A DNA stretch of 64,000 nt from Spirochaetia bacterium (lineage in GTDB: Bacteria; Spirochaetota; Spirochaetia; WTKD01). The notes beneath the pieces were generated by a model, which was not told the DNA's origin, searched no databases, and saw only the letters and a program-made list of their open reading frames with translations. Made by a program: the position numbers and the translations under genes. The stretch is taken from assembly GCA_965243525.1 (NCBI GenBank), contig OZ251568.1, positions 466,119-530,118 of the forward strand, in the 5' to 3' direction. Of the stretch, positions 331 to 59,370 are shown piece after piece (the stretch's first letter is position 1; each line of letters opens with the position of its first letter).

Positions 331-378
331 ATATCTGAGTGTATGGCATCTTTATGCACAACGTCAAATTAGGGTTAT

Positions 379-438
379 TTCTGTTTAGCAGATGACAAAA
401 TACTCTATACAGTTGAAAATTATCCGATAAGAAACTAT
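379..438 (+). repeat. Copy A of a 60-bp direct repeat. It differs from the copy at 1967-2026 by 1 mismatch.
   Basis: ttctgtttagcagaTGacaaaatactctatacagttgaaaattatccgataagaaactat was read directly. The second copy is identical except for G394 versus A1982. Confidence 0.85.
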
Positions 439-728
439 CCTTTATTCCACTCAATGTGCTAGCAACGATTTCTAGACTTCAGGGCATGCTTGATTAAATA
501 ATTATTGATTCTCCTTGATTACATCGAGAATAATGCCAAATACTTGACCCTTGGATCAATTGTTTTTAATGCTTTGACATGTTTCACCATGACATCCGTG
601 GCGTGTGGGGCAAGCTAATTTATCATGCGTATAGAATTTCCCTACGCTTAGATCTCCCAGTAGATGTCTGTGCACCCTCTCATACCCCATATCAACAAGA
701 TATAGGAATCCGAAGGTGAGATATTCGC

Positions 729-938
729 TTATTCGAGATAATTATGTTGTTGTTTGTCAAGTGCGTCTTTGACGGCACGTTCTATGGCTTCGAGTTGCTT
801 ACGTTCAGCCTCTTGAGCCTTCTCCTCTTCTGTTAAGAAGTACTTTCTTCGTCGATAGCTCCCGTAGATATGTAGCGCTATCCACACACAAACCAAAACA
901 CCCAGGGCCCGTATTATCGTATCAACAGAATCCATCAT
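729..938 (-). CDS. Hypothetical small protein (69 aa) with a single predicted TM helix and a charged coiled-coil tail.
   Basis: ORF with hydrophobic segment ALGVLVCVWIALHIYG followed by an EEEKAQEAERKQLEAIERA tail. No recognisable family. Confidence 0.3.
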   Translation of the reverse strand: MMDSVDTIIRALGVLVCVWIALHIYGSYRRRKYFLTEEEKAQEAERKQLEAIERAVKDALDKQQHNYLE

Positions 939-954
939 GTATATTCGCTCCTTG

Positions 955-990
955 TTATATATATATTACGCATATATTACGCATATTTTC
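955..990. repeat. Short tandem repeat (atatattacgc x2) embedded in an AT-rich stretch.
   Basis: tatatatattacgcatatattacgcatattttcc was read directly. Confidence 0.5.
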
Positions 991-1285
991 CTTTTTTTAT
1001 GTATACAATATACATAAATTTATTTATGCGCATACTGCTTATATACATAACAGATAACTCATGTGAATGGTTACACAATGTCGCAATTAAATCATGTAGT
1101 TGGTTGTTCTCCTGCTTCACTCGTTCATACTCCATAGCTCTGCGCTCCCGCTCTTCCTCAATCCTCTTGCTCTCCATCTGCGCCTCAGTCTCAGCACGCT
1201 TAAACCTGTACCAAGCAGCCACCCCCAAGCAACGCACGACACTCCAACGACATTGATTAGTACTATATAGTCTGTACGAAATCAC
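977..1285 (-). CDS. Hypothetical charged coiled-coil protein. The true start may be an internal Met.
   Basis: ORF rich in E/R/K (MESKRIEEERERRAMEYERVKQENNQLHDLIA). Its N-terminal part runs through the AT-rich repeat, so the start is uncertain. Confidence 0.25.
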   Translation of the reverse strand: MISYRLYSTNQCRWSVVRCLGVAAWYRFKRAETEAQMESKRIEEERERRAMEYERVKQENNQLHDLIATLCNHSHELSVMYISSMRINKFMYIVYIKKGKYA

Positions 1286-1966
1286 TTATTAAATACCCCT
1301 CATCGTTTGGGATAACTCTCTAAGGCTCTACGAGCCCCTCTCCTGCCTAAATTTTGACTGTGAATGAACGGCCATCCTGCCTGAGAATAGATATACCAAT
1401 ATCTTCCTTAAGAATAAACGAGAAGCACACTCTACAAGCTTCTGCATCATATCAAATATCATTACTTTAATTGCCTAGTGCAAAATCATCTCCCACAATG
1501 TAGTGTTTGCAGAATCAATGTAATTAGTACGAGATCCTGAGCGTCCCTATTTGATCCACGTATTACCGTTCTTATCGTTTCCAGAATGTAATTCTCGGTG
1601 CGCTAATCGGATGGCTGTAGTGCTCTGCGTTTTCGTGTATCAGCACGTCAATCGCAAGGTCAAGATTTCGATATTCCTAACACCTTTCTCTACTTCTGCA
1701 ATGTTAAAATCTTTGCTGCCATAGTTAAAATAGGGGCTTACCACGTCGCGGATAGCAGTGCAGATAGATGGATCCCACCGCCAATCCCAAGTGGACACGC
1801 TTCCACAGTTGTCTCAGAAACACCTCTTGTCATTAGGAACGTTGAATGATGCAGCAAACGCGTCGAGGGCCCTACCAACCTGTAGATCATTGTATTTCGA
1901 CCCAACACTGTATGGAATTAGTCCGTTGGGTAGATCGAAATGGCAAAGACATCTAAAATTACGAAG

Positions 1967-2026
1967 TTCTGTTTAGCAGATAACAAAATACTCTATACAG
2001 TTGAAAATTATCCGATAAGAAACTAT
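1967..2026 (+). repeat. Copy B of the 60-bp direct repeat. It ends exactly at the AT of the GerM-like start codon (2025-2027).
   Basis: ttctgtttagcagaTAacaaaatactctatacagttgaaaattatccgataagaaactat matches 379-438 in 59 of 60 positions. Confidence 0.85.
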
Positions 2027-2864
2027 GAAAAAGCACAAAAAACAGCGGTCTTCGGCCTGGATATTTTGGTCAATCATACTCGTGCTTGGCTTGGTCATGT
2101 TTTTTGTAAATAAAAATACAATTGATTCTGTACTTGAAAAAACACAACTCTTTGAGAAAATCAAAAATAGAAATAATGCTTCTCCTGTTGAGATAATTAT
2201 TGAAAAGCCACAGGATCCTGCAGTGGAATCTAATGCTCCACAGCCTTCCAACGAAAAAAATCAAACAACACCACCTCCTTCGGAAGCCTCTGAAACCGCT
2301 CCATCACAAAGCAACGAAATTGCTGCTTTGCCAGAAGAACAAGCGAATCTCAACGCGATTTCTCCGGAAAAAGATCCGCCTTCTGATGCTCCTGCAAGCG
2401 ATGACACAGGGCCCGGATCAGATGAATCAGATGAATCTTTCCGAACGATATCTTTATATTTTCTCAAACAAACAGGATCGACAATCCAATTAGAACGAAT
2501 AACTCGAAAGGTGCCTCAGACCCCTGCTCCACTTTCTGAAAACATCCGCTATCTTTTGAATGGCCCCACTGCATCTGAACAGCAAGCAGGCATTCTCAGC
2601 TTGATTCCCTCGCAAAGCAAACTGCTCTCTGCATGGGTGAAGGACAAAGTTGCCTATTTAAATTTCAACACCGCTTTTCGCTTTAATCAATATGGACGTG
2701 AAGGATCGGATGCGCAGCTTCGACAGATCGTTCATACCGCCATTCAATTTCCTACCGTTGATTCTGTGCAAATCCTTATTGAGGGGGAGGTGCTCGACTT
2801 TCTCTCTGGGGATGGCGTGCATATTGGAAACCCGCTCACCCTGGCAACAATCGCTAAAGAATAG
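2025..2864 (+). CDS. GerM (GerMN)-domain lipoprotein/secreted protein with an N-terminal signal/TM segment and a Pro/Ser/Glu-rich linker.
   Basis: N-terminal KKHKKQRSSAWIFWSIILVLGLVMFF (signal anchor), a low-complexity region of roughly 70-150 aa, and a C-terminal LYFLKQTGSTIQLERITRKVP...YLLNGPT...AYLNFNTAF...VDSVQILIEGEV typical of the GerMN domain. Confidence 0.6.
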   Translation: MKKHKKQRSSAWIFWSIILVLGLVMFFVNKNTIDSVLEKTQLFEKIKNRNNASPVEIIIEKPQDPAVESNAPQPSNEKNQTTPPPSEASETAPSQSNEIAALPEEQANLNAISPEKDPPSDAPASDDTGPGSDESDESFRTISLYFLKQTGSTIQLERITRKVPQTPAPLSENIRYLLNGPTASEQQAGILSLIPSQSKLLSAWVKDKVAYLNFNTAFRFNQYGREGSDAQLRQIVHTAIQFPTVDSVQILIEGEVLDFLSGDGVHIGNPLTLATIAKE

Positions 2865-3657
2865 ATTCATAGACCAGTGTTTCAATTGAAACACATGAAC
2901 CTGATTCACTATCAATCGCTGCAACAACACCATGGATCGTTGCAGTATTCTCACTGACCGTAAAGGGTAAGGGAATATTGGTAGTCATATTTTTCACACT
3001 CGTGTTTGCATTAAATCCAATAACACTTTCGCGGGGAATGCAGGCTCCTATGTCGGTGCAATATCCCGTCCCTTTTTGCTGGATGCGAGCATCGCGAGTC
3101 TGTGTGTGCGTATGGGTGCCAAAAACAAGGCTTGCCTTGCCATCGAAATACTGCGCAAAGGTCTGTTTCTCAGCCACATCCTCGGCGTGAAAATCAACAA
3201 TAACAATTGAACTATTGTCCCCTTGCTTTTTTATAGCTGCCTGCACCGCCTTAAAGGGGCAATCGATTGCATCCATGTGCTTTCTTCCCTGTGCGTTTAT
3301 GATCAATATATTTTTTTCGTTCACCTGCATAGAGCACCATCCCTTTCCTGGACATACCGATGGATAATTGATCGGTCGCAGGACTCGATCTTCCCTATTC
3401 AGAAGTTCATAAGCTTCGTCTTGTCGCCACACATGGTTGCCTGTCGTGATAACATCGACACCCACGTGGTGTAGTTCTTGAATAATCGAATAGGTAATCC
3501 CAAACCCCTCGCACGCATTCTCTGCGTTAGCAAGAATTAGGTTTGGACGATATTTTGAGCGGAGTGTTGCAAGAGAAGTAGTCACTGCTCGCATCCCTGG
3601 ATGGCCAATAATGTCACCAAGAACAAGAACAGTGAATAATTTAGCGGGCATATTCAA
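2854..3657 (-). CDS. ymdB: YmdB-family metallophosphoesterase (2',3'-cyclic-nucleotide phosphodiesterase, TIGR00282-like).
   Basis: LVLGDIIGHPG...LILANAENA..G.GIT...GVDVITTGNHVW...FHAE..AEKQ...GTHTHTQTRDARI are the characteristic YmdB motifs. The gene lies immediately downstream of rny, as in Bacillus. Confidence 0.75.
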   Translation of the reverse strand: MNMPAKLFTVLVLGDIIGHPGMRAVTTSLATLRSKYRPNLILANAENACEGFGITYSIIQELHHVGVDVITTGNHVWRQDEAYELLNREDRVLRPINYPSVCPGKGWCSMQVNEKNILIINAQGRKHMDAIDCPFKAVQAAIKKQGDNSSIVIVDFHAEDVAEKQTFAQYFDGKASLVFGTHTHTQTRDARIQQKGTGYCTDIGACIPRESVIGFNANTSVKNMTTNIPLPFTVSENTATIHGVVAAIDSESGSCVSIETLVYESIL

Positions 3658-40696: not shown

Positions 40697-40875
40697 AATC
40701 AGAACTCCTTATCCCTGGAATACTCACCATATATCTCAGTATTATCTCTCATAGTGTATACACTAGACATTGGGTATACAAGAATGATATCGATTGCAGG
40801 GGAGATCTTTTATGTTACGTAATCTTTGGGTATGTGTTGGGATATTGCTATTTGGTTTTGCCTAGAAAAGACGTA

Positions 40876-40947
40876 TAGCCCGTAGGGGAGTCGAACCCCT
40901 GTTACAGGACTGAGAACCCTGTGTCCTAACCACTAGACGAACGGGCC
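40876..40947 (-). tRNA. tRNA-Glu (anticodon CUC).
   Basis: Cloverleaf by hand-fold: acceptor GGCCCGT/ACGGGCT (G1.U72), D-stem GTCT/GGAC, anticodon stem CAGGG/TCCTG with loop TTCTCAG, T-arm AGGGG-TTCGACT-CCCCT, discriminator A. No encoded CCA. Confidence 0.7.
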
Positions 40948-40950
40948 ATG

Positions 40951-41021
40951 CTTCCCAGGGAGGATTCGAACCCCCACAAACAGAACCAGAACCTGTTGTG
41001 CTACCATTACACCACCGGGAA
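40951..41021 (-). tRNA. tRNA-Gln (anticodon CUG).
   Basis: Acceptor TTCCCGG/CTGGGAA (U1:A72 as in E. coli tRNA-Gln), anticodon stem ACAGG/TCTGT with loop TTCTGGT, T-arm GGGGG-TTCGAAT-CCTCC, discriminator G. It lies 3 nt from tRNA-Glu. Confidence 0.7.
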
Positions 41022-44423: not shown

Positions 44424-44611
44424 TCACTACATAGATGAAAGAAACTCGCAAATCAGCTTATAATAGGTAGATAGAAATAAGTTAAAATCTATTTTATTAC
44501 AAGTAGATTTATCTTTTTAAAAAAAGAGTATACTTTTATATAATACATCTAATATATTATCAATTATAATATAAAATATATTATTGGGGTATTGTAAAAA
44601 GAAATGAAATA
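44424..44611. promoter_or_regulatory. AT-rich (about 20% GC) inverted-repeat-rich intergenic island upstream of fliA.
   Basis: aaatcta-N-tagattt IR, the near-palindrome ataatataaaatatattat, and poly-A/T runs. The surrounding window is about 45% GC. Confidence 0.3.
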
Positions 44612-44929
44612 TTAGGTTCCCGGATAGCCGTTTTGTTCATACTGCTGTATGATCATTTCTGCAAATCCGAATGTTTCAACCCTTGCGAGGATCTGTGAAT
44701 ATTCAGTATCCATCATGTCTTGGAACACTTCTTCCGCAAATCCACCATACAAAAAATTGTCTTGAGGATTGAGGGTGCTACGCATGCTCTTGAGCAATTG
44801 TTTCACAAATAATGATTCAAATTCGCTGGCTACATCGTGGAGCTTTTTTGTATTGTAGTTGAGCTGATCGCTGAGGACATCAGCACGTTGATTGTTGAAT
44901 GTTTCAATTCCTAATTGTTCAATAGTCAT
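44612..44929 (-). CDS. flgJ: Flagellar rod-binding protein (FlgJ N-terminal-domain-only).
   Basis: FESLFVKQLLKSMRSTL...FLYGGFAEEVFQDMMDTEYSQILA is the Rod_binding motif. 105 aa with no muramidase domain. Confidence 0.55.
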   Translation of the reverse strand: MTIEQLGIETFNNQRADVLSDQLNYNTKKLHDVASEFESLFVKQLLKSMRSTLNPQDNFLYGGFAEEVFQDMMDTEYSQILARVETFGFAEMIIQQYEQNGYPGT

Positions 44930-44934
44930 TTATA

Positions 44935-58572: not shown

Positions 58573-58587
58573 ACTGTATCCTATATT

Positions 58588-59016
58588 TTAAAATGGAATA
58601 TCATCGTTAAACGATGCATCGGTTTCCGTTGTTGCATTGGAAGAAGCAGAGGTGTATTCAGGAGCAGAATCAAAATCTGCATCCCCTCCACGATTGCCGC
58701 CCAATAATTGCACTTGGTCAGCAACAACGTGCACCTTGCTTCGCGTTTCACCTTCTCGTTCCCAACGATCCTGTCGTAGAGTTCCTTGAAGTGTAACCGT
58801 TTTTCCCTTCAACAAGCTTTTCTGCAATACTTCCCCATATCGACCAAACATTGTTACGTCAAAAAAGCTCACCTCATCTGTCCACTCATCTCCGCTTTTT
58901 TTACGTCTATTAACCGCAATTGAAAACGTACATATCGCCAAGCCGCTGCCGGTATATCGTATTTCAGCGTTTCTTACGAGGCGACCTCCTAAAACAACTG
59001 TGTTTATGTCAGCCAT
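58588..59016 (-). CDS. ssb: Single-stranded DNA-binding protein.
   Basis: OB-fold N-terminus MADINTVVLGGRLVRNAEIRYTGSGLAICTFSIAVNRR, a Gly-rich linker, and the acidic tip DDIPF. Confidence 0.85.
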   Translation of the reverse strand: MADINTVVLGGRLVRNAEIRYTGSGLAICTFSIAVNRRKKSGDEWTDEVSFFDVTMFGRYGEVLQKSLLKGKTVTLQGTLRQDRWEREGETRSKVHVVADQVQLLGGNRGGDADFDSAPEYTSASSNATTETDASFNDDIPF

Positions 59017-59309
59017 GGTTCTTCATTTTTTATTACCATCATGCGGAGCAATTTCGTATAATGTTTCAATTTACTACGAACTTTATGTGCATTCTCTGCT
59101 GCAGCAACGCTTCGATAGAGAAAGTAATTCCCTTGTTTTTCTTTGTTGATAGGATACGCAAGACTACGTAGTCCCATATGTTCTTCGCCAATAATCTTTA
59201 TATCCAACTCTTTTAGGGTATCACGTACCTCATCACGTCCTGTTTGAAATTTGTTCGAGTCGGCATAAAACAAACAGATTATTTCATATTGTGCATCTTT
59301 TCCATTCAT
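59004..59309 (-). CDS. rpsF: 30S ribosomal protein S6.
   Basis: YEIICLFYADSN...LKELDIKIIGEEHMGLRSLAYPINKEKQGNYFLYRS. 101 aa, upstream of ssb-rpsR. Confidence 0.75.
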   Translation of the reverse strand: MNGKDAQYEIICLFYADSNKFQTGRDEVRDTLKELDIKIIGEEHMGLRSLAYPINKEKQGNYFLYRSVAAAENAHKVRSKLKHYTKLLRMMVIKNEEPWLT

Positions 59310-59335
59310 AAAAATTAATATATCCTATTAGGTAG

Positions 59336-59362
59336 AGTATACACTGTACGATACTCTGTCAA
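59336..59362 (-). promoter_or_regulatory. Sigma-70-type promoter for rpsF-ssb-rpsR.
   Basis: On the minus strand: TTGACA-15 nt-TATACT. It overlaps the 7-bp inverted repeat agagtat...atactct. Confidence 0.35.
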
Positions 59363-59370
59363 TAGATGTC

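Follow-up and report, generated by a model that had tools for sequence, protein, structure and literature searches.

The divergent promoter region between ptsI and a GerM-like gene (gerM), near the left end of the 64-kb stretch of DNA analysed here (the window), very probably carries an insertion scar in which the native leader of gerM was duplicated around dead cargo. As judged by comparison with related loci, the window has a lineage-specific insertion of 1,588 bp, comprising 1,528 unique bases and a 60-bp duplication, which appears to be the inert result of a recent event in a short promoter region shared by the two genes. A single duplicative step is tentatively favoured as the mechanism, with confidence somewhat below even, and the full statement, scar and favoured mechanism taken together, falls just short of an even call. 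The features of the region are listed in Table 1.

Table 1. Features of the ptsI-gerM region, in window positions.
Feature	Position	Strand	Remarks
ptsI (PTS enzyme I) 5′ end, first 110 codons	1..332	-	Gene exits the window at left
Native left part of the ptsI-gerM intergenic region	333..378		Colinear with relatives
Repeat copy A	379..438	+	Duplicate of the native gerM leader, now apart from gerM
Inserted DNA, 1,528 bp, not in relatives	439..1966		Empty site in L004 and L001
ORF69, intact orphan, 69 aa	729..938	-	Predicted to span the membrane once, by a helix, with a charged helical tail
AT-rich tandem repeat, ATATATTACGC x2.4, 11-nt unit	961..986		Between ORF102 and ORF69
ORF102, 102 aa, doubtful or degenerate	977..1285	-	From the ORF list
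Pseudogene fragment, uncharacterised lipoprotein-type alpha/beta-hydrolase, C-terminal third	1572..1858	-	phmmer, family HMM and tblastn
Repeat copy B	1967..2026	+	Leader in place, adjoins gerM, ends in AT of the start codon
GerM-like gene (Germane domain), intact	2025..2864	+	Pfam PF10646, E = 1.6e-21

Organization of the ptsI-gerM Locus

The ptsI translation from the ATG at 332 begins MEILTGIAVSHGI..., and its N-terminus is 66% identical to PtsI of the relative L001, a product that matches PEP-utilisers_N/PEP-utilizers. A promoter scan of the bases next to ptsI identified a putative sigma-70-like promoter on the minus strand (TTGACG at 367-362, an 18-nt spacer and TACACT at 343-338), and alignment with relatives revealed the conserved blocks GTCAAA and AGTGTA/ATTGTA in the same 46 nt, a segment that probably acts as the ptsI promoter. 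On the other side of the gap, gerM encodes a protein with full-length homologues in Spirochaetia.

In the relatives L004 and L001, whose GerM proteins are 58% and 45% identical to that of the window, ptsI and gerM are divergent neighbours approximately 100 nt apart, the insert is absent, and the locus is otherwise syntenic over seven genes. Both relatives have a single copy of the 60-bp sequence, located directly before the gerM start codon. This compact arrangement is widespread, with 72-124 nt separating ptsI and gerM at about 30 other loci in Spirochaetia, and it is because relatives are single-copy, with spacers of this size, that the insertion is assigned to the lineage of the window. An earlier note, made from the sequence without database searches, had set beforehand the test of whether related genomes lack the 1.5-kb segment at this locus and have one repeat copy, and exactly this was found in L004 and L001. 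Within the window, where ORFs of at least 150 aa cover 89% of the sequence, the 1,692-bp gap between the two genes is by a wide margin the longest stretch lacking such an ORF, the next largest being 798 bp.

The Duplicated Leader

The two copies of the repeat match at 59 of 60 bases, differing only in a G at 394 versus an A at 1982. This direct repeat, the central observation of the earlier note, was recovered both by a repeat search and by a DNA search allowing up to three mismatches, the latter yielding exactly two copies in the 64-kb window, while none of 100 dinucleotide-preserving shuffles gave any match. Alignments of the flanks show that the homology ends abruptly at both edges of the 60 bp. 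The ancestral base at the mismatched column is ambiguous in the alignment of relatives.

The placement of the copies was also described correctly: the last base of copy B is the T of the gerM start codon (ATG, 2025-2027), and copy A is upstream of ptsI, with 46 nt between it and the start codon, and runs on from 333-378 just as the single copy does in L004. Relatives conserve the 3′ half of the repeat, in agreement with the suggestion that copy B is the native leader, and the alignments identify the 60-bp repeat as the 5′ leader that belongs to the GerM-like gene. The gerM promoter and leader may thus be present twice, and copy A, in which the scan places a better -35-like hexamer (ATGACA) than that of copy B (ATAACA), may initiate transcription that runs into the insert, antisense to its ORFs. 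The repeat does not form a stable hairpin (minimum free energy of -4.5 to -5.5 kcal/mol; z of -0.3 to +0.7 against shuffles), and its conserved core gave no exact-pattern matches in the genome, metagenome and viral collections.

Content of the Inserted DNA

The inserted DNA is very probably junk, or dead cargo, and not a working system. The hydrolase fragment, ORF69 and ORF102 all lie on the minus strand, and hexamer coding potential, from a model trained on this window's own genes, is 0-0.2 within the insert versus 0.3-0.6 in neighbouring genes. When positions 300-2100 were compared with the whole window by blastn and tblastx, the 60-bp repeat was the only match. Alignment likewise revealed no similarity of the insert to ptsI or gerM, and a decayed copy of either gene was rejected. 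An RNA gene was rejected as well, Rfam at E ≤ 1 giving no match near threshold and only two chance-level miRNA-like matches over the AT-rich repeat. No terminator-like site was found in 250-2150, and so none before gerM.

The two small ORFs and the AT-rich tandem repeat reported in the earlier note are present as described. ORF69 is preceded by a Shine-Dalgarno sequence, AAGGAG at 953-948, 9 nt from its ATG, and being intact with so good a site it may mean that the insert is not wholly dead. Its coding potential is approximately 0.1, however, and its sole match among 5.8 billion proteins is itself, in a public collection with NCBI and ENA sources. Matches of ORF69 to Pfam and PHROG families were all sub-threshold, those to PHROGs being spanin-like, and no homologue was found in viral contigs. 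The gerM product and ORF69 each fall in a 90% protein cluster with one member only. ORF102 is possibly a decayed paralogue of ORF69: a local alignment of the two has a score of 50, shuffles average 27 (sd 5.3), and 1 of 500 shuffles reaches 50, although the alignment is weak since charged residues are abundant in both.

The roughly 700 bp described in the earlier note as devoid of an intact ORF do lack one, but they are not featureless, as they demonstrably hold what is predicted to be a fragment of an alpha/beta-hydrolase pseudogene. A phmmer search among 1.84 billion proteins returned a match to one such protein (P0029) with E = 2.8e-4. The HMM of its family aligned over model positions 239-285 and 277-322 of 324 in two adjacent minus-strand frames, with 31.5 and 28.6 bits, while the next best score anywhere in the window was 0.6 bits, leaving no second site in the 64 kb. 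In tblastn, all 46 of 46 family members matched the pseudogene site. The reading frame is broken by an in-frame stop at 1816-1814 and a frameshift at approximately 1677-1682 before the natural stop at 1574-1572, and the 5′ two-thirds of the gene are absent, the gene being cut near copy B; weak colinear similarity extends beyond the fragment to about 1885.

The family (P0029-P0074) derives mostly from Myxococcota MAGs and metagenomes, and its AF2 model (pLDDT of 86) has esterases as top Foldseek matches. The fragment aligns to about the last third of these proteins and shares their invariant NCG, W-WDP, NYG-DF, H-HP and FW motifs. Unlike them, it is a stop- and frameshift-bearing remnant, only about 30-45% identical, that lacks the N-terminal two-thirds and with them, probably, the GxSxG nucleophile elbow; because the part carrying the nucleophile serine is missing or deleted, the fragment cannot be an active enzyme. 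No donor emerged among metagenome sequences, in which the best relatives are only 27-45% identical, and no ORF69- or ORF102-like neighbours stand beside these relatives.

Searches for Mobile Elements

The earlier note had read the repeats as the footprint of an integrated element or of a local duplication followed by gene decay. The first proposal held in part, as relatives lack the insertion, however no sign of a mobile element or prophage was found by homology, inverted repeats or recombinase content. When the insert was searched by blastn, neither the 50,697 phage records nor the 72,556 plasmid records gave a match. With tblastn, the reconstructed pseudogene peptide found no match in phages and one weak match in plasmids, of chromosomal type, to a Calx-beta domain protein on a non-mobilizable plasmid. 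Viral contigs scanned with the hydrolase alignment, ORF69 and the repeat pattern gave no match. Given the lack of DNA matches in phages and plasmids and of protein matches in phages and viral contigs, a phage or plasmid origin was rejected.

Six-frame translations of 439-1966 matched no family in Pfam, NCBIfam or PHROGs, and no recombinase, excisionase or transposase was found among them, consistent with the description of the segment as a decayed remnant that retains no integrase or transposase. Terminal inverted repeats were at chance level, the best local alignment of one end with the other, with or without the repeats, spanning 6-14 columns with 10-12 matches. Of the features expected of an att-integrated element, direct repeats duplicating the chromosomal target are present, as a 59/60 pair that is single-copy in L004 and L001. 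An integrase is found neither in nor beside the insert, the flanking genes being ptsI and gerM, and the collections searched hold neither mobile-element relatives nor the same element in other genomes. The proposal of a local duplication found no support: within the 64-kb window no sequence was found from which the insert could be derived, with no similarity at the DNA or translated level to ptsI, gerM or the remainder. Diverged repeats or a widespread repeat family, either of which the earlier note had named as evidence against its reading, were not observed, the copies being nearly identical and no family being present within the 64 kb.

Timing and Mechanism of Insertion

The event is probably recent, because copies A and B are identical at 59 of 60 positions (98%) versus 42 of 60 (70%) between the repeat and its L004 orthologue; this dating assumes that the copies have not been kept alike by gene conversion or selection. 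If the event is recent, the inserted DNA was probably non-functional already on arrival. Under the favoured mechanism, an arbitrary DNA fragment, either ectopic from the same genome or foreign, would have been inserted in one duplicative step, captured while a staggered break was repaired, or copied in when replication switched templates and picked up again 60 nt upstream of the point of departure. Such a step would account for the gene cut near the junction, the absence of element-like ends and the target duplication. With 1,528 bp placed between two 60-bp copies, all of the ancestral spacer upstream of ptsI (46 + 60 nt) has stayed with that gene, and the 60-nt leader is still joined to gerM. 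Truncation of the pseudogene close to copy B argues that the junction is an arbitrary breakpoint and not the natural end of an element. A target duplication of 60 bp is long for break-repair insertion in bacteria, which counts against this mechanism, and direct repeats of such length more commonly mark the att sites of integrated elements.

It is possible, if doubtful, that the segment is instead the remnant of an att-integrated prophage, genomic island or recombinase-less, cis-mobilisable element, trimmed to 1.5 kb, in which the repeats are attL and attR and the gerM leader served as the 60-bp att core for site-specific or Campbell-type recombination. Direct target duplications, tens of bases long, around lineage-specific DNA are the classical signature of an integrated element, the relatives show the empty site with one copy, and the repeat boundaries leave both flanking genes their native upstream DNA, as is typical of att-carrying elements. 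However, the six frames contain no recombinase, excisionase or phage- or plasmid-like gene, the phage, plasmid and viral collections show no similarity, and the gene cut near copy B requires at least one further deletion ending at or inside attR. Heavily decayed cargo between repeats that differ at one position in 60 is hard to reconcile with an element active until recently, and no easier to reconcile with an old one, whose repeats would be expected to have diverged or to have removed the insert by recombination. The truncated gene would also be explained by a large tandem duplication running from 379 into a far-downstream hydrolase pseudogene, with the duplication junction inside the gene, followed by deletion of nearly all of the first copy, so that its first 60 bp (copy A) and last 1.5 kb are left joined to the second copy (copy B). 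Such duplications are frequent in bacteria and the native origin of the duplicated 60 bp would follow, but this history is unlikely: it needs two large events, the low hexamer scores of the insert ORFs do not favour a native origin, and the 62 kb downstream contain no second copy of 439-1966 and no member of the hydrolase family, therefore either the duplication would have been longer than 62 kb or its source must have been lost.

An old insertion retained for a function, as a small membrane protein (ORF69) or a second promoter, with the copies held alike by selection or gene conversion, is distinctly unlikely. The intact ORF69 with its AAGGAG site and its entry in a public protein collection, the conserved 3′ half of the repeat and the better -35-like hexamer of copy A would fit with retention; against this, ORF69 has weak coding potential and no homologue in the collections searched, copy A serves no evident purpose, since the promoter-like site of ptsI falls outside it, and recombination that homogenises 60-bp repeats at a distance of 1.5 kb would remove the insert as well. 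That the 60-bp sequence belongs to a family of dispersed intergenic repeats of the REP type, or that the arrangement is an assembly artefact, is highly improbable. The count of copies covers 64 kb of an approximately 1.79-Mb genome, which leaves some room for a family, but that stretch has two copies only, no stable hairpin is formed, the 60-bp sequence has an orthologue in relatives, namely their single-copy gerM leader, and exact-pattern matches are lacking in genome, metagenome and viral collections; as for an artefact, the one-base difference means that the copies are not an exact k-mer overlap, and the surrounding genes are intact. Very unlikely, too, is that the segment represents a recombinase-less miniature integrative element or the product of an integration mechanism making unusually long (60-bp) target duplications. 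The former would imply mobilisation in trans by an integrase encoded elsewhere, with the gerM leader as target and ORF69 as cargo, and the latter would duplicate a whole promoter and leader, so that neither divergent gene is inactivated.

Significance and Comparison with Known Systems

As an ordinary scar of a past insertion, the region is of little importance beyond this genome. It does offer a clean, datable case of a compact divergent promoter region taking in 1.5 kb of junk with both genes kept, neither ptsI nor gerM having been lost because, on the favoured reading, a single event both brought in the DNA and duplicated the leader. The appropriate annotation for the 1.6-kb stretch is an insertion relic that includes a pseudogene, and a search for function there is not called for. 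Were the unit mobile, which is unlikely, it would define an integrative element of very small size, from a spirochaete lineage that has been little sampled.

The insertion resembles IS elements and MITEs in being flanked by a direct target duplication, however both were rejected here, as the duplication is 60 bp versus the typical 2-14 bp, there are no inverted repeats and no transposase, and the window holds one copy. Compared with what is generally known of att-flanked genomic-island and prophage remnants, including CIMEs, the region is similar in its lineage-specific DNA, near-identical repeats duplicating the target, intact flanking genes and empty site in relatives. It differs in that the insert is only 1.5 kb and lacks an integrase, an excisionase or any phage- or plasmid-like gene, that a gene is cut near one repeat, that the target is a 5′ leader and promoter instead of a tRNA or the 3′ end of a gene, and that the sequences searched yielded neither a second copy nor a related element. 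Templated insertions of the MMBIR/FoSTeS type, which are rarely documented in bacterial genomes, have junction microhomology as the signature of template switching, readable only with the donor sequence; the donor locus was not found here. The likeness lies in arbitrary DNA without element-like ends, a duplicated target, and endpoints that cut genes, all of which are shared by such insertions and by the segment between ptsI and gerM.

The Duplicated gerM Leader and the Ancestral Locus

Two 60-bp direct repeats, identical at 59 bases (G at 394 versus A at 1982), bracket an insert between ptsI, the PTS enzyme I gene at the left window edge, and gerM, which encodes a GerM-like protein. This pair, described in the earlier note, is borne out, with only two copies in the 64-kb window when up to three mismatches are allowed and matches in 0 of 100 dinucleotide-preserving shuffles. 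The placement given there also holds: copy A lies upstream of ptsI, 46 nt from its minus-strand ATG at 332, and copy B ends in the gerM start codon, its last base being the T of the ATG at 2025-2027. Similarity outside the 60 bp was absent on both sides in the flank alignment, and a secondary-structure check of the repeat found no folding. Counting ORFs of 150 aa or more, no other ORF-free stretch of the window comes near in length to the 1,692 bp between the two start codons; such ORFs cover 89% of the rest of the window, where the second-largest gap is 798 bp.

Features of the ptsI-gerM region and of the remaining window
Feature	Coordinates	Strand	Details
Putative sigma-70-like ptsI promoter	367-338	-	TTGACG, 18-nt spacer, TACACT
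Copy A	379-438		
Insert	439-1966		1,528 unique bases
Copy B	1967-2026		
Palindrome	420-430; 2008-2018		one in each repeat copy
ORF69	729-938	-	intact; one hydrophobic helix, then RRRK and a charged helical tail
ORF102	977-1285	-	doubtful ORF
Stop-poor frame	1966-977	-	8 stops in 330 codons (7 internal and that of ORF102)
Hydrolase HMM match 1	1819-1682	-	model 239-285; 31.5 bits
Hydrolase HMM match 2	1709-1575	-	model 277-322 of 324; 28.6 bits; stop at 1574-1572 after
gerM	2025-2864	+	Pfam Germane, E=1.6e-21
gerM (+)/ymdB (-) 3' ends	2854-2864		11-nt convergent overlap
ymdB/rny overlap	3641-3657		
tRNA-Glu(CTC), tRNA-Gln(CTG)	40875-41021	-	adjacent; only tRNAs of the window, far from the insertion
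Stretch without long ORFs	44424-44934		511 nt, 32% GC; no Rfam gathering-level match
Stretch without long ORFs	58573-59370		798 nt; no Rfam gathering-level match

Close relatives of the GerM protein are few, the best being P0002 (58% identical) and P0003 (45%); in none of the collections searched does this genome, a single contig of ~1.79 Mb according to the protein collection, have a relative above 58% GerM identity. The contigs encoding P0003 (L001-L003) are syntenic with the window across seven genes (ptsI, gerM, ymdB, rny, a PALP enzyme, an aminotransferase and the next gene), with only 102 nt separating the ptsI and gerM start codons. On L004, the short contig encoding P0002, 99 nt are present upstream of gerM, colinear with window positions 336-378 and then with the 60-bp repeat, which leads into the gerM ATG. 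L004 is an empty site with one repeat copy, as looked for in related genomes by the earlier note, and short spacers recur elsewhere: a survey with each GTDB species represented by one genome recovered 80 Spirochaetia loci, and in the approximately 30 where ptsI is detectable upstream it is divergent from gerM, almost always at a spacing of 72-124 nt. Subtracting one repeat copy and the unique bases from the window leaves a 104-nt spacer of ancestral size, which identifies the repeat as gerM's native leader with its upstream region, and the additional 1,588 bp of the window as a derived insertion. Against its L004 orthologue the repeat matches at 42 of 60 positions, versus 59 of 60 between copies A and B; the duplication is in all likelihood far younger than the divergence from the L004 lineage.

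The divergent ptsI(-)/gerM(+) pair, often followed by ymdB(-), is kept across many Spirochaetia (L005-L084), including on a very small 0.9-Mb chromosome, e.g., L013 (OZ220222.1, a 903-kb Spirochaetia chromosome). Both repeat copies carry the palindrome TTATCCGATAA, close upstream of the gerM start in copy B, and its TCCGATA core is kept in the gerM leaders of both relatives, so that it may be an operator or translation signal. No Shine-Dalgarno motif was found for gerM.

The promoter-like blocks of ptsI are conserved in L004 (1-40) and L001 (5828-5870). The putative -10 element ends only 5 nt before the ATG, so that the ptsI mRNA of the window's lineage could have little or no leader. The entire ancestral intergenic region would have stayed with ptsI and the 60-nt leader with gerM, an arrangement that may leave both genes unaffected. 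The duplicated leader has a better -35-like hexamer in copy A (ATGACA) than in copy B (ATAACA), and no terminator-like site was found between copy A and gerM; copy A could therefore give rise to a long transcript running antisense to the insert ORFs.

Content of the Insert

The GC content of the insert is 41.8%, versus 43.7% for the window, and a hexamer-based coding model, with the genes of the window as its training set, scores 0-0.2 everywhere within it, versus 0.3-0.6 for ptsI, gerM and ymdB. A hint of former coding sequence comes from the stop-poor minus-strand frame, whose codon-aligned antisense has 7 stops, where the minimum of six shuffled frames averages 13.4 (p ~0.01). ORF69 is preceded by a Shine-Dalgarno sequence (AAGGAG, 9 nt upstream); it matched only itself among 5.8 billion proteins, and family searches gave sub-threshold matches only. 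ORF102 could be a degenerate ORF69 paralogue.

When the conceptual translation of the stop-poor frame was compared exhaustively, by phmmer, with 1.84 billion representatives, a single match emerged, P0029 (E=2.8e-4), from a family of 46 hypothetical proteins without sequence matches in Pfam, NCBIfam or the PDB, the few named members being from Myxococcota MAGs. These proteins (P0029-P0074, loci L085-L100) are mostly ~300 aa and lipoprotein-like, with a Cys-containing signal peptide, a low-complexity linker and a 215-aa domain bearing invariant SGG-W, NYG-DF and HC-HP motifs. The AlphaFold model of a full-length member (AF2, pLDDT 86) is closest in fold to alpha/beta-hydrolase esterases. A family HMM run against the six-frame translation of the entire window has only two matches, in adjacent minus-strand frames, the next score in 64 kb being 0.6 bits, and all 46 members match the same place by tblastn, some reaching 1858. 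The fragment retains the invariant C-terminal motifs, with an in-frame stop at 1816-1814, a frameshift near 1677-1682 and a gap at the expected GxSGGSW nucleophile elbow in the MAFFT alignment; 1859-1966 aligns, without significance, to the colinear model position 191-211. The room left before copy B is too short for the at least about 190 codons of the gene's 5' end, so that the right-hand junction interrupts a gene.

Origin of the Insertion

The event was an insertion that duplicated 60 bp of native target, with a dead cargo and one end within a gene. The hydrolase fragment has several disabling lesions versus one difference across 120 nt of repeat, and it is more parsimonious that the pseudogene preceded a recent event than that an old event kept its repeats alike, as copy A has no evident function, the ptsI promoter-like site falling outside it, and homogenising recombination would also remove the insert. 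The simplest explanation, adopted tentatively, is a single duplicative event in which an arbitrary, already degraded fragment without element-like ends would have entered recently, by staggered-break fill-in or by a replication template switch returning 60 nt upstream.

The strongest competing explanation is that an element with the 60-bp core integrated by an att-type or Campbell route and was later trimmed. This is consistent with the repeat length and native-target duplication; however, it is unlikely, requiring extra deletions that end at the repeat and having neither recombinase nor mobile-element homology in support. Translated in all six frames, the insert had no meaningful score against any Pfam, NCBIfam or PHROG family; it also showed no Rfam family, tRNA or terminal inverted repeat, and no similarity to viral contigs or to phage and plasmid records, the latter a comparison proposed in the earlier note. 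That note's reading as an insertion and remnant stands, without the mobile-element identity; nor is local duplication of neighbouring genes supported, the insert resembling nothing else in the window. A tandem duplication spanning >62 kb followed by deletion, an improbable origin, would likewise leave a minus-strand gene cut off at its 5' end next to copy B, but the window has no source copy. Functional retention of the insertion is slightly less probable again, and a repeat family or an artefact would be very surprising.

Comparison with Known Systems

The outcome resembles att-flanked island remnants; unlike them, the scar has neither a recombinase nor mobile-element cargo. The length of its duplication and its lack of terminal inverted repeats, a transposase and further copies in the window set it apart from IS elements and MITEs, and within the 64-kb window the 60-bp unit is not REP-like. 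The feature fits best among insertion/duplication scars with a pseudogene, a kind already known.
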